Assembly (NCBI GenBank): GCA_963693055.1
Contig: OY843751.1
Span: forward strand, 3,808,001 to 3,872,000
Reading direction: 5' to 3'
DNA from: a bacterium
GTDB lineage: Bacteria > Zhuqueibacterota > Zhuqueibacteria > Residuimicrobiales > Krinioviventaceae
Length of the DNA stretch: 64,000 bases
Under the pieces are notes generated by a model, which did not search any database, had not been told where the DNA came from, and was given only the letters and a program-made list of their open reading frames with translations. The translations under genes were made by a program, and so were the position numbers. Positions 13,282 to 38,318 of this stretch are shown here, in pieces; positions within the stretch are counted from its first letter, which is position 1, and each line of letters begins with the position of its first letter.

Positions 13282-13593
13282 ATCAGTCCTGTCGGGTTTC
13301 CGTTTAAATCACAGTGTCAAACTTATTAAAAATAAAAAACAATACCAAACAATTTCTGAATGATTTTCATTTTTTGCATTCACTAATTTAGCATATATTG
13401 AGGTAAAATACAACCGTGGAATTGTAAAATTACAGTAAAGGGAAAAAGTGATAAATATAAAATCCAGATCTGTAATATAAAAAGGATTTGTATGTTTGCA
13501 CCATTTTCTTCTCGTTCCGGGGCTTTGACATGGTACGATCTTTTAATTCATGATCCCAAGGCTTTGCCTTGGGATCAATCATAAGAACATCTC

Positions 13594-17151: not shown

Positions 17152-17367
17152 ACTCCCTCCTTTTCAGTTAAACCACTAGATATTATAAACTGCATCTTTT
17201 TAAAAATGGATTTAAAAATCAGGTATCCCCTTTTTTCCACCCATAGAATAAAGTTACAAAATCCTGACTCATAATGCAAGATTTATAAAAATCCCTATTT
17301 TTCAGATTTTGATAAAAAGATAGATGGAGATTCCCCCCCCTTAAAATGCGTATCCTCTATCTTTTTT

Positions 17368-17435
17368 CTCGTTCGCGAACTCTGACCTGGAACGATCTTT
17401 TAATTGTCGGCCCCAAGGCAGAGCCTTGGAACCAG
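17368..17435. repeat. Degenerate REP/REPIN-like pair of imperfect inverted palindromes
   Basis: CTCGTTCGCGAACTCTGACCTGGAACGA and an imperfect inverted partner containing perfect hairpin CCAAGGC-AGA-GCCTTGG. Confidence 0.45.
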
Positions 17436-17534
17436 AATAAAATCCAAACCTGTAATACAAAAATGATTTGCATATATGAGCCATTTTTAATATTATTAGC
17501 TTTCCCCTATTACATATTTCAGGACCAGACTATC

Positions 17535-20500: not shown

Positions 20501-20741
20501 ACTGGATGAACAATCTCAATCAGGCCGGGTTTGGATCAATGATGAACAATATTTTGAAGGTGTTCCGCTTTTGGCGTGGGAGTTTTACATTGGCGGTTAC
20601 CAACCGGCTCAGAAATGGCTCAAAGACAGACACGGCAGAACGTTGACCTTTGATGACATACAACATTATCAAAAGATCATAGTCGCCCTGACAGAAACCC
20701 ATCGCATAATGCAGGAAATTGACAAGATAGATTTTATGTAA
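17535..20741 (+). CDS. Fused restriction endonuclease / N6-adenine methyltransferase / TRD (Type IIG/IIL-like with ISP-type specificity domain)
   Basis: N-terminal PD...EAK nuclease (GAPDLIITRKQIPIGYIEAKD), motif I ILDPAAGTGTFL, motif IV GNPPY, C-terminal YIYAVLHSPAYREKY...DFPRVP and IGGYQPAQKWLKDR. Start placed at MNEHL rather than 17346. Confidence 0.85.
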   Translation: MNEHLNLYLTNIKKRYQSGISTEHSYRGDLQTLIEALVPGVLATNEPTRIACGAPDLIITRKQIPIGYIEAKDIGKPLDSKEFKSQFDRYRKSLPNLIITDYLDFWLFINGELVTTVQIGYVRDKKLFIETDKLDRFIDIMQEFCTREGQTITSASKLSKMMAAKARLLSQVIENALNSDEENKQDSSLKAQLKAFQDVLIHDINSKEFADIYAQTIAYGMFAARLHDPTLEDFSRQEAAELIPKSNPFLRKLFQYIAGYDLDDRIKWIVDALADIFRATDVAALLKNFGKTTQQNDPMIHFYETFLSEYDPKLRKSRGVWYTPEPVVNFIVRAVDDILKTEFNLPQGLADTSKTTIEVDTDVKDKRSSTGYKREKVEVHKVQILDPAAGTGTFLAEVIKQIYKKFEGQQGIWSNYVDDHLIPRVNGFELLMASYAMAHLKLELLLKETGYVAKKEQRLRVFLTNSLEEHHPDTGTLFANWLSTEANEANYIKRDTPVMVVLGNPPYSGESQNKGDWIMHLMQDYKKEPGGKEKLKEKNPKWLNDDYVKFIRYSQYFIEKNGEGILAFINPHGFLDNPTFRGMRWNLLKAYDTIYTIDLHGNSKKKEISPNGSPDVNIFDIQQGVSINIFIKTGKKKPNELAKIYHKDLYGERDFKYNYLWQNSLKTILFQALQHKEPMYFMTKKDLKTETIYRNGFSIYNLFKLCSVGIVTARDKFTIHDTQKEVEETIREFQKLADEEAREKFKLGKDVRDWKVEYARKDLTTNYPKKGKFVKIAYRPFETKWTFYTGKSKGFHCYPRNDIMKHFLIKENIGLVFSKQIKAFNNYQHCFIVKSIFESTIVSNKTSEISYGFPLFRYETNNNELFGTDKSDNFNKNILEEFQNRIKLDYEINKTIKNNTFTPLDILDYIYAVLHSPAYREKYKEFLKIDFPRVPYPKDKDTFWALVKLGSVLRGLHLMESPVLDKFITGYPVDGSNTVTRRITRKDYELDEQSQSGRVWINDEQYFEGVPLLAWEFYIGGYQPAQKWLKDRHGRTLTFDDIQHYQKIIVALTETHRIMQEIDKIDFM

Positions 20742-20840
20742 TTCATATACCAAACTCTTTTGGTTCAAGTATTCAATTATTTTAAAAAAGTCACTATTCA
20801 TTCACAAATACGATACGACTAAAACAGACATGGAGACGCT

Positions 20841-21962
20841 ATGATTAACATTAATGACTTTATTATTGAAAAATACTATTCACTTTTTAAAGAATTCATC
20901 AAATCCAAAGATGACAAAGAATTTGATTCATTTGCAAATTCAAATTATATAAAAAAACAAGAATTTTATAAATATGAACTTTTAGATCATGCTCACAAGA
21001 CGCTTGACATTGAAAATTTTGATATAGAAAGTGGACAATTAATCAATAAAATAATTGAATTAATTGAAGATCCCAATAACAATCTTGCATGGAACGACAG
21101 ACAGCACGCTAAACCTCACAACATTTTATTTGAAATTCATAAAAACCGATCAAAGAAAAATACTTTAGAACAATTACTCTATAATTTTTTCAATAATCAT
21201 CAAGATGATGAAATTGTGTTTAATAAACTGGTTAAAGAAATTGGAAAAAAATACAGCGTACTTGCCTATCTGTTTTTCATCAAAGATCCAAATAAATATC
21301 TGCCCATTGCACCCAGAAATTTTGACAAGGCTTTTGTGAAATTAAAAATTGATTTTGCAACAAGTAACAAGTGTTCCTGGGACAATTATACAACTTTTAT
21401 TGAAATACTAGTCCAAATTCAAGCATTTCTTAACACCAAACTTGATGAGAATGTTTCATTGGTTGATGCACATTCTTTTTTATGGATTTTAGTTAAACAA
21501 ATGGAATATGATGGAATTGATCTGGATAACCAATCTAAATCAGCGATTGATAAATTCAACAATCTCCCCCAAAAAGATAGAGAAACTGTAACAAAATCAA
21601 GAGTAGGGCAAGGAAAATTTCGTCTGGATGTTATTAAATACTGGGAAAATTGTGCAGTGACCCATTGCCCCGAAGAAAAACTATTGATTGCGTCGCATAT
21701 TAAACCATGGAACGCTTGCGATCCGCTTGAAGCAATGGACCCATTTAACGGTATTTTACTTTCCCCCAATATCGATAAAGCTTTTGACAAGGGTTATATC
21801 TCTTTTAACGACAAAGGGTCAATCCTTATCTCAAAAGAACATTCAAATGACCTGCAAATTCTTGGGATAAATACTAACATGAAACTTGGTAAACTCGCCC
21901 CCAAGCATGAAAAATACTTGCAATATCACAGACAACATATCTTTAAAAAAGAAAATATTTAA
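20841..21962 (+). CDS. HNH endonuclease with unknown N-terminal domain (Type IV restriction-like)
   Basis: C-terminal RVGQGKFR...CAVT...LIASHIKPW...NGILLSPNIDKAFDKGYISF; GGAG RBS; very AT-rich. Confidence 0.85.
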   Translation: MININDFIIEKYYSLFKEFIKSKDDKEFDSFANSNYIKKQEFYKYELLDHAHKTLDIENFDIESGQLINKIIELIEDPNNNLAWNDRQHAKPHNILFEIHKNRSKKNTLEQLLYNFFNNHQDDEIVFNKLVKEIGKKYSVLAYLFFIKDPNKYLPIAPRNFDKAFVKLKIDFATSNKCSWDNYTTFIEILVQIQAFLNTKLDENVSLVDAHSFLWILVKQMEYDGIDLDNQSKSAIDKFNNLPQKDRETVTKSRVGQGKFRLDVIKYWENCAVTHCPEEKLLIASHIKPWNACDPLEAMDPFNGILLSPNIDKAFDKGYISFNDKGSILISKEHSNDLQILGINTNMKLGKLAPKHEKYLQYHRQHIFKKENI

Positions 21963-22015: not shown

Positions 22016-24628
22016 TTAACTACTCTCTCCTGCCAGTGTAACCTCTACCTTGTTCTTTGCGGTTACATTACCGTTCATATCCTCGACTTTGACTACCAGC
22101 TCGTATGTGCCGGGTTTGACATTACCCAGATCCAGATTGACATACACCGGCTCGTCCCGCGAGGCACCCTGGTACTCAAATGACGTACCCGTAATACCCT
22201 TGTCCCGTCTCATGATCGTATTGAACAATCCGTGCAAAACGGTAGGAGGTTCATCAATACCAATATTTTGTATTGTACAAGTCACACGATACTTTGTCTG
22301 GTCATTTTGTCCGTAAAGCAGGTTATAGATTTCAAAATAGAGCCCTACCATCTGCCCCTTGGAAAAAGCATTAAACATATGAGGATAATAATAAACCTCA
22401 CCTTTTTTAAATTTCTCGCCTTGACCTTCGCCGCCTATTTCTGCGGAAAGTAAAATATCACTGATTTCCAGTTGGTTGTTGCTGTAATCTTTGATCTTTA
22501 ACGTATCACGAAAGACAGCACGACGTTTGGAGACCTGGTCATAGACCTGCATCTCGTAATTATAAGTTGCAGGATCAAGATCAAAGCGTTCCACATCCAC
22601 AATATTGCTCTTTGCCCAGCGATTCATATCCATTTGTACATCAAGAATGGTATTTTCGTTAACGCGTTCAACTTCGTTCCAGTTGCTGTCATAAAAATTG
22701 TAATAATTGGCGAGTTTTATTATGCTTAAACCATGCGTTGTATCCAGCTGCACATTTTGTCCATCTACACTGTAATACAACTCGGTTTCAGTTTTGCCGT
22801 CGTCTCCCTTGAAACTGAGATAAGTAAAAGGAACGGTCATGGGGTCTTCAGCAAATTGATATTTACTGGATTCGGTCTGCAATGCAGCTTTAACTGATTC
22901 TATTGATTCTTCTTTGATTGTATTGGTATACTGTTGAATTACGCTTGCTACCGGCTGCATACTATTAAATGATTCTTCACCCAGGCGTTGATAAATGGGA
23001 TCCAGAAACTCGCGATTCGCAACAGTATAGGGTACGGCTTCAATAATCCAGCCGCTTTTACCGGTATATTTCTTGAAATGGAATGTCATTACATCGTGAT
23101 CATCTGTGGCATAATACTGCCAGGAAATATTCATGGGCATATTGTGAAAAAAGCCATTAGACGCAAGCGATTCGCCATTAAAGGGTTGAGGAACTTTGAA
23201 ATGACGACTCGCGGTAATCATATTTCCATCTACACCGGAACCCGACGAGGTAACGCCGGTTGCCTCTGTCATGCTGGTATATTGCGTACCGCCAAAACCG
23301 CTTGTACCCTGGTTGCCCAATTCCGCTTTTTCATTGAGGTAGGGTTGACCATTAACAACTGTATTTGCAGCAGCAGAAGGATGATAATAAACGGGAATTC
23401 CATCACCGGAAGTGACTTTATTATCGGGAGCGCCATGACGCATAAAAATCACACCCATATCATCAAGCTGCCGGTCACGTGGTAAGGCAACAATATTACA
23501 ATATTCTCGTAACAGCTTGTCACCTTCAATATTGAATTGAGAATAGGGATGCATGGTAGAGTGAACCATATACATCTTGTCTATATCATCTTGTGAGAAA
23601 TAACGGATAAAGTATTTATGCGCAAAATCCAAACGATCATAATACTCGGCAATAAACTCGTTATTCGATGTACTCAGATTGGGATCACGCTTGTTCCAAA
23701 ACCGTTTATAAAATGCGAACAAATCAAACAGGTCCGTTTTTTGATACTCGGCATATTCATCATTATCCATCAAATAACACACTTCATTAAACAGAGTATT
23801 AATAGAGACACTGTCTTTTAAAGCCTTTAAAGCTGTCCAATAATAATTTTCAGCAATTTTGGGGCGATCGAGTTGGAAATAGTTTTTAGCGCTTAGCAGG
23901 TTGATATCAAATTGTGAAACATCAGGGAAATTTTGGCGCATTGCATCCAAACGTTTCAGGCTTTCTTTAAATTTATCCTGATAAAACTCCATCTTTGCCA
24001 TTCCCAACTGAAGCTCGTAATACTCGGGATTGTCTTTTACCAGCTTTTCAAAAATGGATAAACAATCATCATATTTCTGATAAATGATTGAAATATCAAT
24101 TAACGATTCGATCAATCTTGAATTATCAGGATTTTTCTTGATACCATCCTCTAACGCACCAATAGCTTCACCAACCCATTCCACCTCTACATGCAATTTG
24201 GCAATTTCAAGATAAGCATCAATAAGGTGCTCGTCACGTCGAACAGCTTTTTTCAAATTATCCAGCGCTTTGAGATTACCGTTTTCCATGTACTTGTATG
24301 TCATACCGATCTGATAATACGCCATTGCGTAATTTTTATCATAACGGATGGCACGTTCAAATTTATCTATAGCGTCATCAGGTTCACCCTGGGCACGCTT
24401 TAAAAGTCCCATTCCATACCAAGCCTGGGGCAGCTTTTTGTTCTTGTTGAGCAGAGACTGCAATACAGTTTCAGCTTTATTATAATCCTGGTTTTCAATA
24501 AAATTCAGGGCTTGTTTATAGTCACTTTTCCAGGCTGTATCAGATTCGTTTTGAGCAAGTAGAGCAATAGAGAAAACCATAACAAGAGCAAAAATTAAAA
24601 ACACATTAAATCTTTTTAATTCATACAT
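22016..24628 (-). CDS. TPR + GWxTD-domain protein
   Basis: Signal peptide, TPRs, FWNKRDPNLST..NEFIAEYYDRLDFAHKYF and DDMGVIFMRHGAPD (GWxTD-like), C-terminal ISDILL...LYFEIYNL...PGTYELVVKVED. Confidence 0.8.
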   Translation of the reverse strand: MYELKRFNVFLIFALVMVFSIALLAQNESDTAWKSDYKQALNFIENQDYNKAETVLQSLLNKNKKLPQAWYGMGLLKRAQGEPDDAIDKFERAIRYDKNYAMAYYQIGMTYKYMENGNLKALDNLKKAVRRDEHLIDAYLEIAKLHVEVEWVGEAIGALEDGIKKNPDNSRLIESLIDISIIYQKYDDCLSIFEKLVKDNPEYYELQLGMAKMEFYQDKFKESLKRLDAMRQNFPDVSQFDINLLSAKNYFQLDRPKIAENYYWTALKALKDSVSINTLFNEVCYLMDNDEYAEYQKTDLFDLFAFYKRFWNKRDPNLSTSNNEFIAEYYDRLDFAHKYFIRYFSQDDIDKMYMVHSTMHPYSQFNIEGDKLLREYCNIVALPRDRQLDDMGVIFMRHGAPDNKVTSGDGIPVYYHPSAAANTVVNGQPYLNEKAELGNQGTSGFGGTQYTSMTEATGVTSSGSGVDGNMITASRHFKVPQPFNGESLASNGFFHNMPMNISWQYYATDDHDVMTFHFKKYTGKSGWIIEAVPYTVANREFLDPIYQRLGEESFNSMQPVASVIQQYTNTIKEESIESVKAALQTESSKYQFAEDPMTVPFTYLSFKGDDGKTETELYYSVDGQNVQLDTTHGLSIIKLANYYNFYDSNWNEVERVNENTILDVQMDMNRWAKSNIVDVERFDLDPATYNYEMQVYDQVSKRRAVFRDTLKIKDYSNNQLEISDILLSAEIGGEGQGEKFKKGEVYYYPHMFNAFSKGQMVGLYFEIYNLLYGQNDQTKYRVTCTIQNIGIDEPPTVLHGLFNTIMRRDKGITGTSFEYQGASRDEPVYVNLDLGNVKPGTYELVVKVEDMNGNVTAKNKVEVTLAGESS

Positions 24629-24966: not shown

Positions 24967-25872
24967 ATGGGGTATTCAATGGAAAGTAAGGCTGGTCAAG
25001 AAATTCGTGCGTTTCATATCTTTCTAGTTATTTTATACATACTCTCTTTTATTTCAATCATATACTTTTTTTATAAAGGCTGGGATTATTATTCAACCCC
25101 CTTTCCTGAAAGACCCCGCCATGATGGTTACACACTCTTGAAACCCGGTGGAAATTACGGACATGGATTTGGCATTATTGGGTCCCTCATGATGCTTATT
25201 ATGTTATTGTACTCTATACGCAAGCGTGCACAAATATTTTACAAGTTGGGAAATATTACCAAATGGCTGGATATACATATCTATCTTGGCATTTTTGGTC
25301 CTTTGTTAATTATACTGCACAGTTCTTTCAAAGTAAACGGCCTGGTTGCAATCAGCTTTTACTCTATGCTGGCGGTTGCGCTTAGTGGTATAATTGGTCG
25401 TTATCTGTATTTACAAATCCCCCGTAACATACAAGGGCATGAGCTATCATTACTTGAACTCAAAAACATGGATGCTCAACTCTCTAAAAAATTAAAAAAT
25501 GAGTTTGATTTTTCAGATGACATGATTTCAAAACTGGAGCATTTGACCAAAAGCAGCCACCTCGAATCCCAAAATTCAATGGTTTTTCTGGTTAAATTGT
25601 TATTGGATGATATTTACAGAGCCAGAGTTTTTCGCACATTTAAAAAAGAAAATGCTTTTATAAAGAAATTGCCACCCAAACAGGTAAAAGATCTTTTAAA
25701 AATAGCTCGCAATAAAGTGATTCTTCACCGTAGAATTCTTGCATTGAATAAAATACAACAGCTCTTTCACTATTGGCACGTTATTCATAAACCTTTTGCA
25801 ATCATTATGATTATTATCATGTTTGTTCATATTGCAATTGCAATTACATTTGGATATAAATGGATATTCTAA
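24967..25872 (+). CDS. His-rich polytopic membrane protein, putative heme b / ferric-reductase-like TM subunit
   Basis: About 5-6 TMs with histidines HGFG, WLDIHIYLG, ILHSSFK, YWHVIHKPF, FVHIA; first gene of the cytochrome operon. Confidence 0.65.
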   Translation: MGYSMESKAGQEIRAFHIFLVILYILSFISIIYFFYKGWDYYSTPFPERPRHDGYTLLKPGGNYGHGFGIIGSLMMLIMLLYSIRKRAQIFYKLGNITKWLDIHIYLGIFGPLLIILHSSFKVNGLVAISFYSMLAVALSGIIGRYLYLQIPRNIQGHELSLLELKNMDAQLSKKLKNEFDFSDDMISKLEHLTKSSHLESQNSMVFLVKLLLDDIYRARVFRTFKKENAFIKKLPPKQVKDLLKIARNKVILHRRILALNKIQQLFHYWHVIHKPFAIIMIIIMFVHIAIAITFGYKWIF

Positions 25873-25873
25873 A

Positions 25874-27553
25874 ATGAAAGCACAATTCTTTGTTGTACTG
25901 ATCCTGCTTTTATCACTGCCCGCATTTGCGCAATTGTCCCCGGGAAAACTGCACCAATCCCATGCGGATCTTGAAGGTTTGGAAAACTGTTCCAATTGTC
26001 ATCAATTCAAAAGAAAAATCAGTGCTGACAATTGTCTGGATTGTCACATGATTTTAAACAATAGAATTGCATCCGGCAGGGGGCTGCATGCAAATGACGA
26101 GTATAATGAATGTGAAAAATGCCACATAGAACATCAGGGGCGAGATTATGATCTGATATACTGGCCAGATGGAAAAGACAATTTTAAACATGAGCTCACA
26201 GGCTATCATCTTGAAGGCAAGCATTCTCAGCTGAATTGCAGTCAGTGTCATCAATCCCAAAATATAACCAACAAAGCACTGTTTCTTGAAAAGAAAAAGG
26301 ATCTCAATAAAACCCTGCTGGGCCTTGATGAAGATTGCCTTTCATGCCACCATGATGAACATCGTTCCCAATTCACTCAGGAATGCATCACCTGCCATAC
26401 GATGGAAGGTTGGAAGCCTGCAAAAAAGTTTAATCATCAAAACACCCATTTTAGTTTAACCGGCAAACATCAACAAGTAGATTGTGTAAAATGCCATCCA
26501 CAAATCACCGATAATAAATACAATGCACATCCTTCTTTTTCAAAATATAGCAATCTCGAGTATCAAAATTGCATCAACTGCCATCAGGATGTGCATAATA
26601 ATAAATTTGGTTCCAATTGCGAATCCTGCCACAACACATCAGGATGGAAAACTGTGAACCATAACCAGTTTGATCACAACCGTACATCCTTCCCATTAAA
26701 AGGGAAACACATCACAACGGCTTGTGAACAGTGCCATTTACCCGGCAGACCCATTAAAATTAACAAATATGACAGGTGTGCTGATTGTCATACGGATTAC
26801 CATAAAAACCAATTCACCAAAACCGAACATATTGGCAATTGTGAACAATGCCATACCGAACAGGGCTTTACTCCATCGCTATTTACAATTGAAAAGCATA
26901 ATAACCTGGATTTCCATCTGGAAGGTAGTCACAAAGCCGTTCCGTGTATTGCCTGCCACAAAAAAATCAATACGGGCACCAGTTATGAAACCATTCAATT
27001 CCATTATCCAGATAAAAAATGCAGTTCCTGTCACAAAGATCCACATAATGGTCAAGTCAATAAATTCACCTCACAACAGGGATGTGAAGCATGCCACTCT
27101 GTTGCAAGCTGGTACACAATCAATTTTGATCACAATCAGACAAAATTCCCTCTTGAGGGTCGCCATAAAAATGTTTCATGCGCACAATGTCACGTGGAAG
27201 AGGATCTGTCAAAGAACAAGACCTATGCCTTTGTTAATCTTGTTTCAGATTGCCAGTCATGTCACAATGATGTTCATCTGGGGCAATTCCGGGAAGACCA
27301 ACTTGTAAACGGAAATAACCATACCAACTGTGATAGATGCCATACTCCCGCAAACTGGATTGCTGAAAAGTTTGAACATAATAGAGACGCCTCATTCAAA
27401 CTTGATGGTGCTCACCAGTCAGTCCCATGTAATGACTGCCATAAAGAATTATCATTAAAAGGCAACAAGTTTAGATTATATAAACCCCTGCGCTCGGATT
27501 GTAAATTCTGTCATACCCCTTCAAAAAAAACTAACGATACCAGGTCAAACTAA
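25874..27553 (+). CDS. Multiheme c-type cytochrome, 20 CxxCH
   Basis: Signal peptide MKAQFF...AFAQ, LSPGKLH start, 20 CxxCH counted, repeated F(D/N)H..T.FPL.G.H triheme modules. Confidence 0.92.
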   Translation: MKAQFFVVLILLLSLPAFAQLSPGKLHQSHADLEGLENCSNCHQFKRKISADNCLDCHMILNNRIASGRGLHANDEYNECEKCHIEHQGRDYDLIYWPDGKDNFKHELTGYHLEGKHSQLNCSQCHQSQNITNKALFLEKKKDLNKTLLGLDEDCLSCHHDEHRSQFTQECITCHTMEGWKPAKKFNHQNTHFSLTGKHQQVDCVKCHPQITDNKYNAHPSFSKYSNLEYQNCINCHQDVHNNKFGSNCESCHNTSGWKTVNHNQFDHNRTSFPLKGKHITTACEQCHLPGRPIKINKYDRCADCHTDYHKNQFTKTEHIGNCEQCHTEQGFTPSLFTIEKHNNLDFHLEGSHKAVPCIACHKKINTGTSYETIQFHYPDKKCSSCHKDPHNGQVNKFTSQQGCEACHSVASWYTINFDHNQTKFPLEGRHKNVSCAQCHVEEDLSKNKTYAFVNLVSDCQSCHNDVHLGQFREDQLVNGNNHTNCDRCHTPANWIAEKFEHNRDASFKLDGAHQSVPCNDCHKELSLKGNKFRLYKPLRSDCKFCHTPSKKTNDTRSN

Positions 27554-29664
27554 TGAAAGCCGTATCTATGAAATATTTATTATTTCTACTTTTACTGCTG
27601 AATTCAATATTATTAGCAGTAACCAGTCCTCATGGGGATATAAAAATACCCTGCGAAACCTGTCATACTCCGGCTAACTGGCAGGTTAACAGAGAAACCT
27701 TAAAATTTGATCATAACAGCACCGGGTATCCGTTAACAGGTGTGCATAGCCAGATAGATTGCAAAGACTGCCATGAGAGTCTGGTTTTTCATCAAACTGG
27801 TGTGCAATGTATGGATTGCCATACAGATATTCACCAGGGACAGTTGGGCAAAGAATGCGAAACCTGTCATACCCCCTTAAACTGGGAAAACCGGCAGAAT
27901 ATGCTAAAAGACCATTCTCTTTTACGCTTTCCCTTGTATGGTGCACATGAACGCATTGATTGCGACGACTGTCACCATGCCGGCTTGACAGAATATGCCA
28001 ACACCCCTGTTGAATGTATCTATTGCCATGCGGATGACTATAACTCAACCCAAAATCCTGATCATAAAGAAGCACAATTCCCCACAACCTGTGATGACTG
28101 CCACCCCATACAATCTCTTACCTGGCAAACCCGTGAATTTGATCATTCATTTTACCCATTGACCGGTGCGCATCAAAATGTAACCTGTGCAGATTGCCAC
28201 CACGGTACCTATACCAACACGCCCAATACATGTTATGGATGCCATAACACAGACTATGCGGCTACTATCGATCCCAATCATCAGGCATTTGGGTTCGATA
28301 CAGACTGTTCACAATGTCACACTACTGATACATGGACCCGGACTGCGTTCGATCACTATCAAGCATCCGGCTTTGAATTGATTGGTGCGCACCAGACATT
28401 ACAATGCAGTCAATGCCACATCAACAATCAGGGAACCGGATTACAAAGAGATTGTTATGGCTGTCATTTAACAGATTACAATTCCGTCAAAGAACCTGAC
28501 CATCAACTTGGTCAATATCCTCACGAATGTACAATGTGCCACAATGTGAACAATTGGAGCCCTGCCGACTTTGATCATAACCAGACCGGATTTCCCCTTA
28601 CAGGCGCTCACCAGGCTGTTGAATGTTCGGATTGTCACGAAAATAATGTTTATGCCGGAACTCCATCGGATTGCTACTCGTGTCACGAACCGGATTTCAA
28701 GTCCGTGACAGAACCCAATCACGTCACCGGTAATTTTGATCACGTATGTACCATCTGTCATTCCACAACCACATGGACACCAGCAACCTTTGATCATAAT
28801 AATACCGGTTTTCCGCTTACCGGAGCACATACAACAGCAACATGTCTGGATTGCCATGTTAATGGATATACCAATACGCCATCAGATTGCTACTCGTGCC
28901 ACGAACCGGATTTCAAGTCCGTGACAGAGCCCAATCACGTCACCAGTAATTTTGATCATGTGTGCACTATCTGCCACTCTACAACCGCTTGGACACCCGC
29001 AACCTTTGATCATAATAATACCGGTTTTCCGCTTACCGGAGCACATACAACAGCAACATGTCTGGATTGCCATGTTAATGGATATACTAATACGCCGTCA
29101 GATTGCTATTCGTGCCACGAACCGGATTTCAAGTCCGTGACAGAGCCCAATCACGTCACCGGTAATTTTGATCACGTTTGCACTATCTGCCACTCCACAA
29201 CCGCATGGACACCAGCAACCTTTGATCATAATAATACCGGTTTTCCGCTTACCGGAGCACATACAACAGCAACATGTCTGGATTGCCATGTTAATGGATA
29301 TACCAATACACCAGCGGATTGTTTTTTCTGTCATGAAAACGAGTACAATAATACAACAGATCCCAATCATAAAGCTTCTCAATTCCCGGTTACCTGTCAG
29401 GATTGTCACAATACCAACAACTGGGAGCAAACCACCTGGGACCATGATGCCCGCTATTTCCCCATTTATTCCGGCGAGCATCGCGGAGAATGGGATGCAT
29501 GTTCTGATTGTCACACCAACGCATCAAATTATACCGTATTTGAATGTATCAACTGTCATGAGCATCAAAAATCTGAAATGGACAACGAACATGATGAAGT
29601 AAGAAACTATCAGTACCTGAGTACGGCTTGTTATAATTGTCACCCAAATGGGAAAGAAGATTAA
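27553..29664 (+). CDS. Multiheme c-type cytochrome, 28 CxxCH
   Basis: Signal peptide, 28 CxxCH counted, ~72-aa triheme modules; TAATG coupling to both neighbours. Confidence 0.92.
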   Translation: MKAVSMKYLLFLLLLLNSILLAVTSPHGDIKIPCETCHTPANWQVNRETLKFDHNSTGYPLTGVHSQIDCKDCHESLVFHQTGVQCMDCHTDIHQGQLGKECETCHTPLNWENRQNMLKDHSLLRFPLYGAHERIDCDDCHHAGLTEYANTPVECIYCHADDYNSTQNPDHKEAQFPTTCDDCHPIQSLTWQTREFDHSFYPLTGAHQNVTCADCHHGTYTNTPNTCYGCHNTDYAATIDPNHQAFGFDTDCSQCHTTDTWTRTAFDHYQASGFELIGAHQTLQCSQCHINNQGTGLQRDCYGCHLTDYNSVKEPDHQLGQYPHECTMCHNVNNWSPADFDHNQTGFPLTGAHQAVECSDCHENNVYAGTPSDCYSCHEPDFKSVTEPNHVTGNFDHVCTICHSTTTWTPATFDHNNTGFPLTGAHTTATCLDCHVNGYTNTPSDCYSCHEPDFKSVTEPNHVTSNFDHVCTICHSTTAWTPATFDHNNTGFPLTGAHTTATCLDCHVNGYTNTPSDCYSCHEPDFKSVTEPNHVTGNFDHVCTICHSTTAWTPATFDHNNTGFPLTGAHTTATCLDCHVNGYTNTPADCFFCHENEYNNTTDPNHKASQFPVTCQDCHNTNNWEQTTWDHDARYFPIYSGEHRGEWDACSDCHTNASNYTVFECINCHEHQKSEMDNEHDEVRNYQYLSTACYNCHPNGKED
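28660..29307 (+). repeat. Intragenic tandem repeat 3 x 216 bp (72-aa triheme module)
   Basis: Units start at 28660, 28876 and 29092 (TPSDCYSCH...CTICH...CLDCHVNGYTN); near-identical DNA. Confidence 0.95.
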
Positions 29665-30467
29665 TGAAAACAGCATTTAAAATCTTGATTTTTCTCAGTA
29701 TCTCTACAGCATTTTTTATCAATTATGTATACTCGAAAGACATACCCCACAAGCAATTGAAACTGGAATGTAACAGTTGTCACCTGACAGAAAACTGGAA
29801 TACTATTACGTTTGACCACAAGTCAACACAATTTCCACTGGATGGCAGGCACCATAACCTGGAATGCGTTGACTGCCACAATCTTGAAGATTTTTCTCAA
29901 ATCAGGATGGAATGCAAACAATGTCATCTTGATATTCACCAGGGGAAATTAACATATCCCTGTGACCAATGCCATACAACCAGTGGGTGGCAGGTCAAAG
30001 ATATTTTCAAGGTCCATGCCAATACAACATTCCCGGTACTGGGCGCGCACAGTCGGTTGGATTGCGATGCCTGCCATATATCAGAAATTGTGGGTGAATT
30101 TGCCCGCATTCAATCAGATTGTTATACCTGTCATGAACAGGATTACAAAAACACGACTGATCCCTCACACCAGGATTTTGGATTTAATCACAGATGCGAA
30201 GATTGCCACAGTATGCTCGCATGGTTTCCGGCAATGTTTGCCGAGCACGAATCCCGCTTCCCCATCTCTTCCGGAGCGCATGCAGGTGAATGGGAAAATT
30301 GCAATATCTGTCATACCAATCCCGGTAATTTCCAGATATTCAGTTGTCTCAACTGTCATGAGCATAATCAATCGAGTATGGTTGGAGAACATGACGAAAT
30401 AAGTGGATTTAGCTACAACAGTGATGCGTGTTACCGTTGTCATCATGATGGCAAAGCGGAGGATTAA
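29664..30467 (+). CDS. Decaheme c-type cytochrome, short paralog of the 28-heme protein
   Basis: Signal peptide MKTAFK..., 10 CxxCH; C-terminus (FPISSGAHAGEW...CLNCHEH...CYRCHHDGKAED) matches the upstream cytochrome. Confidence 0.9.
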   Translation: MKTAFKILIFLSISTAFFINYVYSKDIPHKQLKLECNSCHLTENWNTITFDHKSTQFPLDGRHHNLECVDCHNLEDFSQIRMECKQCHLDIHQGKLTYPCDQCHTTSGWQVKDIFKVHANTTFPVLGAHSRLDCDACHISEIVGEFARIQSDCYTCHEQDYKNTTDPSHQDFGFNHRCEDCHSMLAWFPAMFAEHESRFPISSGAHAGEWENCNICHTNPGNFQIFSCLNCHEHNQSSMVGEHDEISGFSYNSDACYRCHHDGKAED

Positions 30468-30469
30468 TT

Positions 30470-32068
30470 ATGAACTTTATAAAAAATAGTATTTTCATCC
30501 TGATTTTGATTTCTATTTCGAGTATTTCCGCACAAGAATCTGCTAAAGATTTTACCATTAAATATATCTCGAATGAAAACATTTATATTGATGGCGGCAG
30601 CATAGATGGACTTGCAGTTGGAGATACAATAATCGTAATGCGTAAAAACACTCGTATTGCGGTAATGACGATTAATTACACAGCAGATCATTCAGCGGCA
30701 TGTACAATTGTATCGCAAAGCATGCAAGTTCAACCGGGAGATTTGGCAAGGCCTTTGGTGCTTCGTCAGCAGGAAAAATTCGAAACCGTGTCTTCTCCAC
30801 TGAAAACAAGAAAAACCATACTACGCCAAAAGACCCAAACAAAACAGAATGATATGAAAATCAGGGGCAGCGTTTCTTTGCAATGGTACCATTTTGAAGA
30901 CATGTCTGAAGGAAATTTCAGTTTTGATCAACCGGGTGGACGATTGAATCTAAGAATGAAGAATGTGTTTACCAAAAACCTGAATTTCAGGATCAAAACC
31001 AAAAGCCGGTATAACAAACGGATGACGCATCTAAGCGGTACTACAGCCAGAAACGAATGGCGCAACCGCATTTATACCGTCAGTCTGAGTTTTGATGATG
31101 ATAATGCAGCAATAAATTATAAACTGGGACGTATTATCTCGAACAAATTCAGCGGCATTGGTTATATTGACGGTGCTTTAATACAACACAATACAACCGA
31201 AAATTTACGATACGGTGTTTTTGCCGGTACGCAACCCCAATGGCAGTATGCCGATTTCCAGACATCCATACAAAAATATGGCGCCTATATTAATTATTTA
31301 CAAGGCCAATATGGAGGCAAGCGGTTTGAATCTACCCTGGCCGCTGCCGGAGAATATCATGGTGCTGAGGTAAGCCGCGAATTTGTCTATCTGCAAAACA
31401 GCTTTTCTTCACAACAATTTAATCTCTATAGCAGTGCAGAACTCGATGTAAACCGTGACTGGCGCAAAGATAAAAGCGGCGAAAATATATCTCTTACCAA
31501 TCTTTATCTCAACTTTTCTTATGCTATTACCCGGAGCATTACAACAGGATTAAGTTTTGACGATCGGAAAAATTATTATACATACGAAATCCGTTCTGTT
31601 GCAGACAGCCTGTTTGATGATGCCATGCGTTATGGAGCTCGCTGGAATCTGAACCTCCGTTTGCCGGGCAACTATCGGGTGTATGCTAACGCGGGTATAC
31701 GTGCCAGAGAAACCGATACGGAAAACACATATTCCGGGGCATTGGGCGTCAGTAAAAACAATATTACTGATCACAACCTGTATGTAAATTTTTATGGATC
31801 AGGATTTCAAAATTATTTTTCAACAGGATTTAATGCATCTTTAAGAATGGGCAAATACTTTAGGGCTGGGCATAATGTAAACATGAGTTATGGTAACTAT
31901 TCGTATGTGTTGAGCACAACCAATACCACCCGTTCTAACCACTGGTTACGTTTAAACGGAAATTTACAGATTTTTAGACACATCTATCTCGATGAGAATT
32001 ACGAATATATCTGGGGATCGGACTCGCCAGGGCACCGGATATATATTGAAATGGGTTACCGGTTCTAG
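30470..32068 (+). CDS. Outer-membrane beta-barrel protein with N-terminal soluble domain (putative cytochrome-associated porin)
   Basis: Signal peptide, alternating aromatic beta-strands, terminal YIEMGYRF signature. Confidence 0.7.
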   Translation: MNFIKNSIFILILISISSISAQESAKDFTIKYISNENIYIDGGSIDGLAVGDTIIVMRKNTRIAVMTINYTADHSAACTIVSQSMQVQPGDLARPLVLRQQEKFETVSSPLKTRKTILRQKTQTKQNDMKIRGSVSLQWYHFEDMSEGNFSFDQPGGRLNLRMKNVFTKNLNFRIKTKSRYNKRMTHLSGTTARNEWRNRIYTVSLSFDDDNAAINYKLGRIISNKFSGIGYIDGALIQHNTTENLRYGVFAGTQPQWQYADFQTSIQKYGAYINYLQGQYGGKRFESTLAAAGEYHGAEVSREFVYLQNSFSSQQFNLYSSAELDVNRDWRKDKSGENISLTNLYLNFSYAITRSITTGLSFDDRKNYYTYEIRSVADSLFDDAMRYGARWNLNLRLPGNYRVYANAGIRARETDTENTYSGALGVSKNNITDHNLYVNFYGSGFQNYFSTGFNASLRMGKYFRAGHNVNMSYGNYSYVLSTTNTTRSNHWLRLNGNLQIFRHIYLDENYEYIWGSDSPGHRIYIEMGYRF

Positions 32069-32102
32069 TTTTTTACGTAGATTATTAATCAGGATGCACA
32101 CT

Positions 32103-33422
32103 ATGGAATCACTTTTTATATGGATAGCAGCAATACTTTTAATGGGGTTTGTCTTTATCCCTTATTTTATAAAATTCCGTAAGCAACAAAAAGCGGACTT
32201 TGACAGGCACCAGGAAGCGGTTTCTTTGGGAGCAGATAAACCCATAGCGCAATTCCCGCAAATTGATCTCATGCGATGCTTTGGATGCGGTTCTTGTGTA
32301 AGAGCATGCCCCGAAGGTGATGTGTTGGGCGTTGTTATGGGTAAATCCACTGTAATTAACGGATTGAAATGCGTGGGGCACGCGCGTTGCGCCGAAGCGT
32401 GCCCGGTCAATGCCATAACCGTAGGTTTGGGAGATATCAAACAGCGGGACGATATACCGGTGATGGATGAGTACAATGAAACATCCATTCCGGGGATTTT
32501 TATTGCCGGCGAACTGGGTGGATTGGCACTGATTAAAAACGCAATAGGCCAAGGTAAAAAAGTAGTCGACCGGATCGCTGCATCCATTTCAAAACGTGAT
32601 GATCTTTATGATGTAATCATTATCGGTGCGGGCCCGGCAGGCATCAGCGCCGCGCTAACAGCCATTCAGCACAAACTCTCGTATCTGGTCCTTGACCAGC
32701 AGGGATTTGGCGGTACCATTTTACAATATCCCCGCAAAAAAGTGGTCATGACCCATCCCGTAGAAATACCACTTTACGGCTGGTTAAATAACAGTGAATA
32801 TACCAAGGAAGAACTGCTTGCAATCTGGGATGACATTCATCAGCAGCACCATTTAAATATAAAAATTGGTGAAAAACTGGAAAAAGTAACAAAACAAGAC
32901 GATTTATTGAGTATCAAAACACAAAACAGCCTCTATAAAAGCCAAAGTTTAATATTGGCACTGGGACGCCGTGGCACTCCCAGAAAACTGGGTGTCCCCG
33001 GAGAAGAGTTGTCCAAAGTCATGTACAAACTGGTTGATGCCGAAAGCTTTCAAAACAATCACATTTTGGTTGTGGGTGGTGGTGACAGTGCGATTGAGGC
33101 TGCTGTAGGCCTTGCCATGCAGCCCGGCAATACCGTAACAATTTCTTATCGCAAATCTAAATTTTTCCGATTAAAAAAGAAAAACCAATACAATATTGAT
33201 GAGCTCGTTAATGACGGCAAAGTTAATATAATCTTTGATTCAAATGTAAAAGAAATTAATACAGATTCTGTACTCTTGCAAACGGATAAAGAAACGATGA
33301 AGCTTCCCAATGATTATATATTAATATTTGCCGGCGGCGAACCACCGTTCAAGCTGTTAAAAGATATGGGCATCACCTTTGGCGGCAGCGAAAAGACAGA
33401 GGTTTTGCAAGAGATTTCGTAA
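32103..33422 (+). CDS. Membrane-anchored 4Fe-4S ferredoxin + FAD/NAD(P)H TrxB/YpdA-like oxidoreductase
   Basis: N-terminal TM, CFGCGSCVRACP and CVGHARCAEACP, IIGAGPAG, VVGGGDSAIEAA; start placed at MESLF. Confidence 0.85.
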   Translation: MESLFIWIAAILLMGFVFIPYFIKFRKQQKADFDRHQEAVSLGADKPIAQFPQIDLMRCFGCGSCVRACPEGDVLGVVMGKSTVINGLKCVGHARCAEACPVNAITVGLGDIKQRDDIPVMDEYNETSIPGIFIAGELGGLALIKNAIGQGKKVVDRIAASISKRDDLYDVIIIGAGPAGISAALTAIQHKLSYLVLDQQGFGGTILQYPRKKVVMTHPVEIPLYGWLNNSEYTKEELLAIWDDIHQQHHLNIKIGEKLEKVTKQDDLLSIKTQNSLYKSQSLILALGRRGTPRKLGVPGEELSKVMYKLVDAESFQNNHILVVGGGDSAIEAAVGLAMQPGNTVTISYRKSKFFRLKKKNQYNIDELVNDGKVNIIFDSNVKEINTDSVLLQTDKETMKLPNDYILIFAGGEPPFKLLKDMGITFGGSEKTEVLQEIS

Positions 33423-36069: not shown

Positions 36070-38163
36070 TTATTTTAACAACAGACACTTTTGTGTTTTA
36101 TGAAAATTGTCTGCAGTCATTCTTATAAAATATATTCCGGAAGGATGTGCAGAAGCGCTCCACATTATATTATAAAATCCGGCAGGTGTCTCGCTATCAT
36201 AGATCGTTTCAACAAATTGTCCCTGGATATTATAAATTGTTATTTTTACGTCAGATAATTTTGGAACTGAAAAACGGATATGGGTCTCAGGATTGAATGG
36301 GTTCGGGTAATTGTTACCCAAAGCATATTCTGATGGAAAATTATCACTTTTCTCACTTACAGATACAATCACTTCAGGCAAAGGGCGTTTCCAAACCCCG
36401 CCATACTGAGTTCCAGCATAAAGAAATGTATCAGCTATTGTCAGAGATTGGACGCCTTGTCTAATAAATCCTGTACCGGTTGTAATATCCATCCAGGATT
36501 GCCCGAAATCCGTAGAAAGGAAAACACCTACAGGTGTTCCTGCAAAGAGATTTGTTCCTGATACTGCAAACGCATTAATATAATAGTCGGTTAATCCTTC
36601 ATTCACTTTGGTCCAGGTTTCACCCTTGTCATCAGAACGATATACACCCCCTCCATCATCCGTCCCGGCAAAAATATATGTTTTTAAAACTTTTAATGAT
36701 GTAATTTTTTTATCAAGTAAACCTGAATTCATTTCTAACCAGGTTTCTCCCTTGTCTGTTGTTAACAGTACCCCTCCTCCATCTGTACCCACAAAAAGAT
36801 GTGAATCCATAACAGCAAATGTGGTAACAAAATAATTTGTCATACCTGAACTTACGTTTTCCCAGGTATTACCATTATTCAAAGAAAGATGAACACCCGT
36901 GCCACTGGCTCCTGCAAATAGAATCGAATCCATGAATACTATGGATTGAATATCAGAAGACTTTAAACCTTTGTTCAAATTTTCCCATGTTGAACCATAA
37001 TTTGTTGATCGATAAATAAATCCCCCACTAGTCGCAGCAAACAGATTTGAATCCCTAACAACAAAGTCAGTAATTTTCATCCAATCCAGTCCTGTACTTG
37101 ATTCTTCCCAAAACGCTCCTTCATCGGAGGAGCGAAAGATGCCTCCGCCATCGGATCCGGCAAAAAGAAATGAATCAGTTGCAGTAAGGGCCTGCACGCT
37201 TGACATTTGCAAGCCCTGATTAACAGGTTGCCAGGAATTACCTTTATCAGTGGAAAGAAAAACACCTTTATTTTCAGTTCCGGCTAACAAATTGGTATCG
37301 ATAACAGCAAGTGCCTGAATTTTATCATACACTAATCCTGAATCCAGGGTTGTCCAGGAATCTCCATTATTCATCGACGACAAAATTTTCCCTCTGGCTG
37401 TACCGGCAAAAAGGGTAGAATCCATAATTACCATACACTCTACAGATGGTTTCATTGTCCCTGAATGCAATGCGTTCCAGGATGCACCATTGTCTGTGGA
37501 ACGAAAAACACCTTCCCATGTTCCTGCAAAAATTGTTGTATCAGAGATTGCAAAGCAACGTATATGATCAGCCCATATGCCATTGTTCGAATTTTCCCAG
37601 GAATTACCATTGTCCATTGACATAAAGATACCATTGCCGTGACTGCCAGCAAAAATAATAGTATCCAGAACTGCAATCGTATTAATCCGGGTATTGGTTA
37701 ATCCTGTATTCACCTCTTCCCAGGAATTCCCCTTATCCGTAGAACGAAAAATGCCCCCTCCATAGGTTCCTGCAAATAACATTGTATCATACACTGCAAG
37801 CGTACGAACATCGAGCTCAGTCAGTCCTGAGCTTGCAGGAATCCAGGATTCACCAAAATCCGGTAAAAAGTACACTCCATCACCATAGGTGCCTGCAAAA
37901 AGGAGGCTATCCATAAAAATAAGCGTATTCACAAACTGTATTTGATAATCAGGACTAGTCTTGCTCCAGGTTTTTGCGTTATTTGTAGACAGGAAAACAC
38001 CGTCACCATGAGTGCCGACAAAAATGTTTGTATCGGAAACAGCAAAGGCCATTACATCTCCACCAAAGGGTCCGTTTGTCTGCAGCCATTGAGAATAGCT
38101 GTTATTGATGAAAATTATAAAAAATGACAGAATGTAAAAAATTAAAATATATAATTTATGCAT
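36070..38163 (-). CDS. Secreted BNR/Asp-box beta-propeller repeat protein with T9SS-type C-terminal domain
   Basis: Many ~42-aa LFAGT.GGGIFRSTD.G.SW...N.GL repeats; NYPNPFNP...TQKCLLLK; start placed at MHKLY. Confidence 0.85.
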   Translation of the reverse strand: MHKLYILIFYILSFFIIFINNSYSQWLQTNGPFGGDVMAFAVSDTNIFVGTHGDGVFLSTNNAKTWSKTSPDYQIQFVNTLIFMDSLLFAGTYGDGVYFLPDFGESWIPASSGLTELDVRTLAVYDTMLFAGTYGGGIFRSTDKGNSWEEVNTGLTNTRINTIAVLDTIIFAGSHGNGIFMSMDNGNSWENSNNGIWADHIRCFAISDTTIFAGTWEGVFRSTDNGASWNALHSGTMKPSVECMVIMDSTLFAGTARGKILSSMNNGDSWTTLDSGLVYDKIQALAVIDTNLLAGTENKGVFLSTDKGNSWQPVNQGLQMSSVQALTATDSFLFAGSDGGGIFRSSDEGAFWEESSTGLDWMKITDFVVRDSNLFAATSGGFIYRSTNYGSTWENLNKGLKSSDIQSIVFMDSILFAGASGTGVHLSLNNGNTWENVSSGMTNYFVTTFAVMDSHLFVGTDGGGVLLTTDKGETWLEMNSGLLDKKITSLKVLKTYIFAGTDDGGGVYRSDDKGETWTKVNEGLTDYYINAFAVSGTNLFAGTPVGVFLSTDFGQSWMDITTGTGFIRQGVQSLTIADTFLYAGTQYGGVWKRPLPEVIVSVSEKSDNFPSEYALGNNYPNPFNPETHIRFSVPKLSDVKITIYNIQGQFVETIYDSETPAGFYNIMWSASAHPSGIYFIRMTADNFHKTQKCLLLK

Positions 38164-38318
38164 TAAAACACCCAACAAGTAAAAATTACTAAAACTTTTG
38201 TTGTATAATTACAACAAAAATATTCAAACCAGGTATTTCATATAATAAAAGATAAAAGGCAAGAGTTTGAATTCAAAGAATAATTATCAGGTTTAACCTG
38301 TGGATATGGGTGGGCATT

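Follow-up and report, generated by a model that had tools for sequence, protein, structure and literature searches.

The stretch of DNA analysed here, called the window below, comprises 64,000 nucleotides of contig OY843751.1 (assembly GCA_963693055.1; positions 3,808,001 to 3,872,000) from a complete, single-contig bacterial genome of 6.54 Mb, whose placement in the phylum Calditrichota rests on the depositors' names of the closest homologs of one of its proteins, the predicted outer-membrane barrel E. Positions 24967 to 33422 of the window are filled by six co-oriented open reading frames (ORFs) on the plus strand, A to F, which are discussed here as a porin-cytochrome cluster of the PCC3 type through which electrons of NAD(P)H in the cytoplasm may reach the cell exterior (Table 1). 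The starts of B, D and F were reset to the ATG codons at 25874, 29664 and 32094, which fit the signal peptides and the lengths of the proteins in relatives. With these corrections, the intergenic gaps amount to 1 base between A and B, -1 between B and C as well as between C and D, 2 between D and E, and 25 between E and F. The six genes therefore look like one translationally coupled operon, as the first-pass annotation of this DNA had proposed. A promoter scan (42 sites against 36 expected) and a terminator scan (6 against 8.4 expected) are uninformative. The sequencing runs listed comprise 3 of DNA type from one study and 1 added run, with no RNA among them. B, C, D and E show signal-peptide-like N-termini. 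The cytochromes B, C and D contain 20, 28 and 10 CxxCH sites, adding up to the 58 haems counted in the first-pass annotation, and none of the variants CxxxCH, CxxxxCH and CxxCK; the modules of the FDH..TGFPL.GAH type described there are readable in all three. The genes for cytochrome c maturation had been placed outside the window, in line with the three genome matches to PF01578 (CcmC/CcmF/CcsA-type, cytochrome c assembly), which lie at 5.51, 5.51 and 1.25 Mb and hence all outside 3.808 to 3.872 Mb, so that none of the three falls in the window.

Table 1. Features of the six-gene cluster, in window coordinates
Feature	Position	Strand	Basis
A, 301-aa inner-membrane protein, predicted di-haem b cytochrome, counterpart of the PCC3 'IMP'	24967..25872	+	Motifs, conservation, AlphaFold2
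B, exported 20-haem cytochrome c, 559 aa	25874..27553 (ORF opens 25823)	+	CxxCH count, Cytochrome_C7 7e-22
C, exported 28-haem Thr-rich repeat cytochrome, 703 aa	27553..29664	+	CxxCH count, repeat scan
Tandem repeat within C: 216-bp unit (72 aa, three haem sites), 3.1 copies, 93% matches	28663..29321	+	
D, exported decahaem cytochrome, 267 aa	29664..30467 (ORF opens 29637)	+	10 CxxCH
E, 532-aa predicted outer-membrane barrel protein	30470..32068	+	AlphaFold2 pLDDT 86
F, 442-aa ferredoxin-flavoprotein with transmembrane anchor	32094..33422 (ORF opens 31992)	+	Pfam, conserved motifs

Protein A had been described as a histidine-rich inner-membrane protein and has this character, with 13 histidines and five predicted transmembrane (TM) helices in the AlphaFold2 model (predicted local distance difference test score [pLDDT] of 83), with which the hydropathy segments agree. 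The model contains a cytoplasmic helical insert at about residues 150 to 265. The motif WxxxHx13H occurs twice, at residues 100 to 118 on TM3 (WLDIH...H) and at residues 270 to 288 on TM5 (WHVIH...H), and an SGxxG motif at residue 140 is found on TM4 (SGIIG). Two histidine pairs, His104/His118 and His274/His288, are thereby each separated by 13 residues (H-x13-H) on one helix. In an alignment of 27 orthologs, W100, H104, H118, G141, G144, W270, H274, and H288 are invariant, and S140 is kept in at least 90%. The four core histidines are also invariant in six paralogs at 17 to 21% identity, unlike His268 and His271, which are not kept there. The earlier proposal that the membrane histidines could ligate haem thus gains candidate ligands from this pattern of conservation, and A is predicted to be a di-haem b protein with its histidine pairs placed for two stacked b haems. 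Sub-threshold Pfam matches among the 27 members point to DUF4405 in 12 cases and to Ferric_reduct in 2. A purified DUF4405 protein is described in a preprint as binding haem b, with four central histidines likened to those of MsrQ (10.1101/2024.03.13.584918).

Protein F starts with a TM helix followed by the sequence KFRKQQK and counts 442 residues from the ATG at 32094, compared to mostly 431 to 446 residues in relatives. The helix is followed by a ferredoxin domain of the 2x[4Fe-4S] type with one complete motif, CxxCxxCxxxCP, and a second one, CxxHxxCxxxCP. Across 45 sequences, the 7 cysteines and His130 (ORF numbering) are 93 to 100% conserved, and the second motif, C-x2-H-x2-C-x3-CP, is invariant, with its histidine kept throughout an alignment of 46 sequences. 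Matches to Pyr_redox_3 (1.5e-46) and Fer4_10 (6.8e-10, 39.2 bits with a cut-off of 25.5) in Pfam, together with the TM helix, agree with the membrane-anchored iron-sulfur (Fe-S) flavoprotein of the first-pass annotation. The nearest solved structures are YpdA/Bdr, thioredoxin reductases (TrxR), and TrxR-type ferredoxin-NADP reductases (FNR). On the families TIGR04018 and TIGR01292, F reaches 180 bits versus a cut-off of 339.9 and 101 bits versus 343, respectively. All 7 cysteines lie within the ferredoxin domain, and the flavin domain contains none; F therefore cannot be a disulfide reductase, and a role as a thiol or cytochrome-maturation reductase is ruled out. Its sequence suggests an enzyme that passes electrons from NAD(P)H to Fe-S clusters while anchored on the cytoplasmic side of the membrane. 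A complex prediction for A (27-row alignment) with F (46 rows), run without controls, gave scores of 0.06 and 0.05 compared to a mark of 0.32, which speaks neither for nor against a contact of the two.

The cytochromes B, C and D are exported multihaem proteins of the c7/c3 type with 25 to 28 residues per haem. Relatives of the cluster were collected by a scan with the barrel alignment, one genome per species, which yielded 53 loci; gene counts at these loci come from ORF and BLAST comparison, F being counted where the sequence continues for 1.5 kb or more past the barrel gene and A where 1 kb or more precedes the first cytochrome ORF. B, with 27.9 residues per haem and a Pfam match to Cytochrome_C7, has counterparts with 20 CxxCH sites in most loci that hold the gene whole. 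C is more densely packed (25.1 residues per haem) and contains 12.8% threonine, with the copies of its repeat at residues 374, 446, and 518. The C-type gene spans about 16 to 67 CxxCH sites in relatives, which makes it seem that the wire lengthens and shortens in evolution as repeat units are gained and lost. The C-terminal ∼230 residues of C form a decahaem module resembling D, with 40% identity over 240 residues, and in 44 of 51 loci such a D-like module stands at the end of the cytochrome gene that immediately precedes the barrel gene. The D-like module is a candidate for the wire inserted into the barrel. The first-pass annotation had remarked that the cytochromes do not look like MtrA, and family scores support this: B, C and D stay below every NCBIfam cut-off for MtrA/DmsE, OmcA/MtrC, ExtN, and HmcA. 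On TIGR03508 (DmsE/MtrA decahaem, cut-off of 192.2 bits), B reaches 39.0 and C 46.4 bits and D has no match; on TIGR03507 (OmcA/MtrC decahaem, cut-off of 209.3 bits), B reaches 28.1 bits, and the ExtN family gives a score of 30 versus a cut-off of 200. A phmmer comparison with the sequences of the PDB returned 0 matches for C and one weak match for D (3oue, E-value of 0.0016).

The 532-residue protein E had been taken for a barrel. The AlphaFold2 model, built with 46 aligned homologs, bears this out, showing a large barrel of 22 strands at residues 130 to 531, preceded by a signal peptide, a small β domain (residues 28 to 97), and a disordered linker (residues 101 to 124), and ending in the aromatic C-terminus ...GYRF. 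The best VIA-align matches of the model are 22-strand barrels of TonB-dependent transporters (Z scores of 18 to 20 over 350 to 373 residues), from which E would have a lumen of the size that holds the plug domain in those proteins. Foldseek returns generic barrels only. The MtrB barrel has 26 strands. E has no match in Pfam or NCBIfam and shows neither a transporter family signature nor a transporter plug. Its 316 relatives are all unnamed; the cultured Caldithrix abyssi encodes a homolog of the barrel. The β domain ahead of the barrel (window positions of about 30551 to 30760) is conserved, with the motif VKYIS..Y.D.G...G..VGD and no family match, and may serve as a periplasmic docking piece.

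The barrel also occurs in a simpler setting. On the minus strand of the same genome, at 2,004,136 to 2,009,383, a gene for a 1239-residue cytochrome with 49 CxxCH sites lies directly upstream of a barrel gene whose product is 43 to 46% identical to E. The C-terminus of this cytochrome is a D-like decahaem module, and no homolog of A or F is found nearby. Such pairs bear on the question of whether the wire of the window leaves the envelope at all. The 58 haems could instead act inside it, as a periplasmic capacitor or as a reductase for a soluble substrate that enters through E as an ordinary channel. The structural neighbours of E are transporters and porins, MtrB not being among the 50 best matches listed by Foldseek and VIA-align; none of the cytochromes of the operon carries a lipoprotein signal or the sorting tail of a type IX secretion system (T9SS) that would mark it as surface exposed; and a capacitor role has been suggested for the haems of PCC3 (PMC9900912). 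This envelope-internal role nevertheless appears improbable, given that the barrel gene is fixed beside the conserved decahaem module in the 44 loci mentioned above, that the minimal system consists of a giant cytochrome and a barrel, and that E is without transporter plug or family signature.

By depositor label, the 53 loci are mostly of the Calditrichota type (34 loci), with 4 from Zixibacteria, 1 from KSB1, 10 from genomes named plainly 'bacterium', and 1 each from Deferribacteres (with KSB1 in the isolate name), Cytophagia, Actinomycetota, and Alphaproteobacteria. The genes of the cluster had been expected to be conserved together, and this is what is seen. F follows the barrel directly in 42 of 49 loci, stands right after A in 2 (L063 and L065), and is absent from 5 (L027, L035, L041, L047, and L049). 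A is present upstream in 27 of 29 loci; from the other two (L027 and L049), F is missing as well. Where A and F occur together (28 loci), raw CxxCH sums over the ORFs range from 17 to 88, some of them inflated by overlapping ORFs or reduced by frameshifts. The locus labelled Alphaproteobacteria (L065), from a metagenome-assembled genome (MAG), has homologs of all five components with 29 to 58% identity.

A similar picture emerges from 167 Calditrichota genomes, where A (E-value of at most 1e-30) is found in 46, E in 45, and full-length F in 43; 39 genomes contain all three, and 49 contain any of them. At least 6 of the 10 genomes with a partial set are incomplete (G138, 67%; G009, 73%; G094, 74%; G101, 80%; G110, 85%; and G012, 86%). 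F accompanies A in 41 of the 46 A-bearing genomes. In a further 32 Calditrichota genomes, F immediately precedes A on the same strand, for example, on G103:C52, with F at 13178 to 14467, A at 14466 to 15353, and E at 19630 to 21234. Altogether, the gene orders are A-B-C-(D)-E-F as in the window, A-F-B-C-E (L063 and L065), F-A-B-C-E (as on G103:C52), and F-A divergent from B-C-E (L102 and L103, one family). The rearranged loci thus show that F keeps company with A across four gene orders. One further locus (L105, G111:C87:1318-8769) has an A gene after a 36-haem cytochrome, a shorter E-like protein (424 residues, E-value of 9.5e-23), and a 248-residue Fer4-type protein, with no full F.

Weak matches to A (E-values of 1e-11 to 1e-15) in relatives mark a second conserved gene set (L096 to L101, e.g., L098:1670-14437). 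This set encodes an A-like membrane protein with the same four histidines, a cNMP-binding 2x[4Fe-4S] protein, a TM-anchored decahaem cytochrome, an FHA protein, a Pyr_redox_3-FHA-[2Fe-2S] (Fer2) flavoprotein of ∼780 residues, and a decahaem/LVIVD protein of 1160 to 1250 residues. A distant paralog of A is here again found with cytoplasmic Fe-S proteins and flavoproteins, which lends independent support to the view that such membrane proteins work with them. The set is neighboured by genes for a PP2C phosphatase and a Ser/Thr kinase, which suggests phospho-regulation of its electron route.

The architecture of the operon corresponds to that of PCC3, a porin-cytochrome cluster predicted bioinformatically and defined in Proteobacteria by He et al. 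in 2017 (PMC5566968). According to that paper, PCC3 comprises a porin, an 'extracellular' multihaem cytochrome that has a median of 34 haems, contains repeats and is rich in Thr, Ser, Ala, and Gly, a 'periplasmic' multihaem cytochrome with a median of 21 haems, and the 'IMP', a protein of ∼300 residues and five TM helices with SGXXG on TM4 and WX3HX13H on TM3 and TM5. The window cluster shows each of these elements. A, a protein of 301 residues and five TM helices, carries the WxxxHx13H motif twice and has SGxxG on TM4; B with its 20 haems corresponds to the periplasmic cytochrome; C is the larger, repeat- and Thr-rich cytochrome with few residues per haem; and E would supply the outer-membrane porin, as far as the fold model goes. 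By architecture and motifs, the six genes are a Calditrichota member of the PCC3-type design, whose named type members come from the proteobacteria Sideroxydans ES-1 and Leptothrix.

In the interpretation that we prefer, to which we give roughly even chances, this PCC3-type cluster is an outward electron route that starts at cytoplasmic NAD(P)H and has a split entry module resembling NOX or MsrQ-Fre. For this route we infer the following cofactors, contacts, direction, and acceptor. F, which its TM helix would fix to the cytoplasmic side of the inner membrane, would use flavin adenine dinucleotide (FAD) to oxidise NAD(P)H and pass single electrons on via two Fe-S clusters, the second with an invariant histidine replacing one cysteine. 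A would take up the electrons at a b haem on the cytoplasmic side (His104/His274) and transfer them to a b haem on the periplasmic side (His118/His288). From there, the 20-haem B could carry them across the periplasm to the repeat cytochrome C, the decahaem D, or both, and one D-like module within the lumen of the 22-strand barrel E would reach the outside. Outward flow from about -320 mV is downhill and aided by the membrane potential, so that the route would shed reducing power and not conserve energy itself. It could thus be pictured as a NOX-like 'electron vent' with which a fermenter disposes of reducing power. More tentatively, and with somewhat less than even confidence, A and F can be regarded as a split NOX-like NAD(P)H:multihaem oxidoreductase that feeds a wire of 50 to 90 haems, bypasses quinones and the respiratory chain, and enables sediment-dwelling fermenters from several phyla to re-oxidise NAD(P)H with minerals, humics, or partner cells as acceptors. 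The first-pass annotation had envisaged a self-contained, possibly quinone-independent conduit fed by NAD(P)H. A conduit fed by NAD(P)H stands as the best-supported reading; that it would be self-contained and independent of quinones is a hypothesis, and CbcL-like cytochromes of the quinol type are encoded elsewhere in the genome.

Several points weigh against an outward route from NAD(P)H. A has no match above the gathering scores of Pfam (DUF4405, 20.6 bits versus 26.7; Ni_hydr_CYTB, 22.8 versus 30.1). Its model finds nothing in the PDB with Foldseek at an E-value of 0.001 or below and only generic helical matches in the wide VIA-align search, where cytochrome b561 (4o6y) at rank 10 (Z score of 7.9) falls within the tool's stated noise band. 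Longer A-containing proteins searched for fusions with F or cytochromes include no redox fusion, the single match being a DUF6572 N-terminal extension. Two D-like modules, the C-terminus of C and D itself, compete for one barrel. The cytochromes are without a lipoprotein signal or T9SS tail, so that their surface exposure is putative. The 49-haem pair and 5 of 49 loci, with barrel and cytochrome and without A and F, indicate that the outer module can stand alone. PCC3 as a whole has been called functionally unverified in later papers (PMC9900912; 10.1101/2025.02.27.639646). He et al. likened the IMP to the ferric-reductase domain and proposed it to be a quinone-active cytochrome b serving Fe(II) oxidation (PMC5566968).

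A quinone site in A is possible and compatible with the data. A would in that case be a quinone-reactive di-haem b protein linking the menaquinone pool and the wire in either direction, with F as an accessory input, such as a second NAD(P)H:quinone-type feed through A, or as a regulator or protector of its redox state. The proposal of He et al. for the IMP was drawn by analogy to bc1 and the cytochrome b of [NiFe]-hydrogenase (PMC5566968), and Ni_hydr_CYTB is indeed among the Pfam hints of A. Quinol-type cytochromes of extracellular electron transfer (EET) are found in the phylum (Table 1 of PMC6295460) and in the present genome, where an inner-membrane-type cytochrome cluster at 5904991 to 5912750 encodes a CbcL-like protein of 512 residues with 7 CxxCH sites and a thiosulfate-reductase/FdnI-like cytochrome b domain, a 933-residue protein with 19 CxxCH sites and a formate-dehydrogenase-gamma-like b domain, an NrfH-like protein of 521 residues with 6 CxxCH sites, and an Omp85-family protein. 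The cytochromes of this cluster could pass electrons from quinol on to periplasmic ones. For a quinol oxidase, though, a partner such as F would not be needed, and 41 of the 46 genomes with A also have F, which remains its neighbour across four gene orders; the distant paralog of A likewise keeps its cytoplasmic Fe-S and flavoprotein partners. MsrQ can be cited on both sides, as it binds a quinone as a cofactor, and its investigators reason from potentials that the donor cannot be a quinone (PMC12525009). Taken together, coupling to quinones is a serious but rather unlikely explanation of the cluster.

The outward direction has its own competitor. FNR-type enzymes are reversible, and electrons from a strongly reducing outside donor, such as a cathode, Fe(0), a syntrophic partner, or reduced minerals, might enter through E, D or C, B, A, and F and reduce NAD(P)+, by which the cell would gain reductant directly. 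He et al. found PCC3 in organisms that oxidise Fe(II) and modelled it as taking up electrons (PMC5566968), and its inner-membrane gene rose in iron-oxidising cells of Sideroxydans CL21 (10.1101/2025.02.27.639646). Inward flow would be opposed by the membrane potential, and by standard bioenergetics the reduction of NAD(P)+ at about -320 mV needs donors well below this value. The Calditrichota that have been studied are described as fermenters and nitrate reducers (PMC5317091). Electron uptake through the window cluster is therefore given a small chance, and flow from NAD(P)H to the outside remains the preferred reading.

Divergent from the operon, at 22016 to 24628 on the minus strand, lies the gene of an 870-residue TPR protein that reaches 28 bits on the CcmH/CycH TPR family (cut-off of 42); a part of this protein in cytochrome maturation is only a thought. 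The region from 17346 to 21962, with a low GC (guanine plus cytosine) content of 0.33 to 0.37, contains a gene for a Type ISP restriction-modification enzyme (1131 residues, Type_ISP_C 1e-90), with an HNH_2 endonuclease gene after it. On the minus strand, at 13594 to 17151 and 36070 to 38178, lie the genes of two large secreted proteins that have C-terminal T9SS sorting domains (Por_Secre_tail), one with a Laminin_G_3 domain and the other Sortilin/BNR-like. Elsewhere in the genome, at 1143326 to 1147643, a third porin-cytochrome-like set comprises 9-haem and 12-haem cytochromes, a lipoprotein-like protein with two rhodanese domains, and a 403-residue unannotated exported protein; the rhodanese partner presumably resembles those of the Geobacter ExtH-type clusters.

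To our knowledge, the known routes of extracellular electron transfer start at quinol oxidases (CymA, ImcH, and CbcL). If the route proposed here is true, a start at NAD(P)H via a flavoprotein and a two-haem membrane protein would represent a different principle of entry. It would turn around the published interpretation of PCC3, in which Fe(II) is oxidised into the quinone pool, and explain why PCC3-type clusters are found in many organisms that are not iron oxidisers. Sediment fermenters could then unload reducing power onto solids, and the cluster would provide a compact, possibly portable cassette to wire the metabolism of a cell to electrodes.

Compared with MtrCAB/MtoAB and the Pcc and Ext systems of Geobacter, the window cluster shares the predicted arrangement of a decahaem-type wire in an outer-membrane barrel with cytochromes on either side. 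Unlike MtrCAB and MtoAB, it has no protein scoring as a member of the DmsE/MtrA or OmcA/MtrC families and no lipoprotein cytochrome. Its barrel is modelled with 22 strands, and the best structural matches of the model are barrels of TonB-dependent transporters. Entry is predicted through a b-haem protein and a flavoprotein and not through CymA, ImcH, or CbcL.

The entry module finds its analogy in the NOX and ferric-reductase-domain proteins and in the Fre-MsrQ-MsrP system, which brings electrons from NAD(P)H to the periplasm (PMC12525009). In these systems, too, electrons go from a flavoenzyme that uses NAD(P)H in the cytoplasm to a membrane protein with b haem and histidine pairs on TM3 and TM5, and the acceptor lies in the periplasm or outside and is reached without the quinone pool, as would be the case here. 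Unlike NOX and MsrQ, A has five TM helices instead of six, carries a 115-residue cytoplasmic insert, and stays below the Pfam thresholds of Ferric_reduct and DUF4405. F differs from Fre by its two predicted Fe-S clusters and its TrxR-like fold, in contrast to the FNR/Fre type of flavin reductase. The acceptor would be a multihaem wire rather than O2 (NOX) or MsrP, so that the likeness concerns a predicted mode of working and not membership in a superfamily.

The second, distant A-like set of the Calditrichota relatives matches the gene list of the ptdABCDEFG operon as given in a preprint (10.1101/2023.11.21.568154), with a 'ferric reductase-like' protein, an FAD/NAD(P) oxidoreductase, a cNMP-binding 2x[4Fe-4S] protein, and a decahaem cytochrome. 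For PCC4, He et al. likewise mention that the IMP gene is preceded by an Fe-S gene (PMC5566968). This ptd/PCC4-like set is a different, paralogous system that is absent from the window and from this genome. The flavoprotein of the set combines FHA with [2Fe-2S] domains and lacks a TM anchor, and the cytochromes differ from those of the window.

A 'pcc-like' system was noted without detail in a Caldithrix MAG and in C. abyssi (Fortney et al., PMC6137239), and term searches in the accessible text of the C. abyssi genome paper (PMC5317091) gave no passage on such a cluster. Zixibacteria RBG-1 has an 'Mtr-like' cluster with PetAB and monohaem cytochromes (PMC3903129), which may or may not be the present cassette. 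Later PCC3 papers, on the Gallionellaceae pangenome (PMC9900912) and on Sideroxydans CL21 (10.1101/2025.02.27.639646), list four genes. The words flavoprotein, FAD, ferredoxin, and pyridine nucleotide have 0 occurrences in the main text of He et al. (PMC5566968), as have flavoprotein, NADH, FAD, and cytochrome b in a preprint on peat, though the supplements of both may list neighbouring genes; as far as these texts go, the flavoprotein partner is not in print. The window cluster further differs from PCC3 by its phylum. For the barrel, AlphaFold2 gives 22 strands here, compared to the up to 42 'transmembrane regions' of the predictor used by He et al. (PMC5566968). The published model leads from Fe(II) to the quinone pool, and the reading preferred here leads from NAD(P)H to the outside. 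What sets the cluster apart from PCC3 as published is that a conserved, TM-anchored ferredoxin-flavoprotein of the NAD(P)H type, F, and an extra free-standing decahaem cytochrome, D, belong to it.

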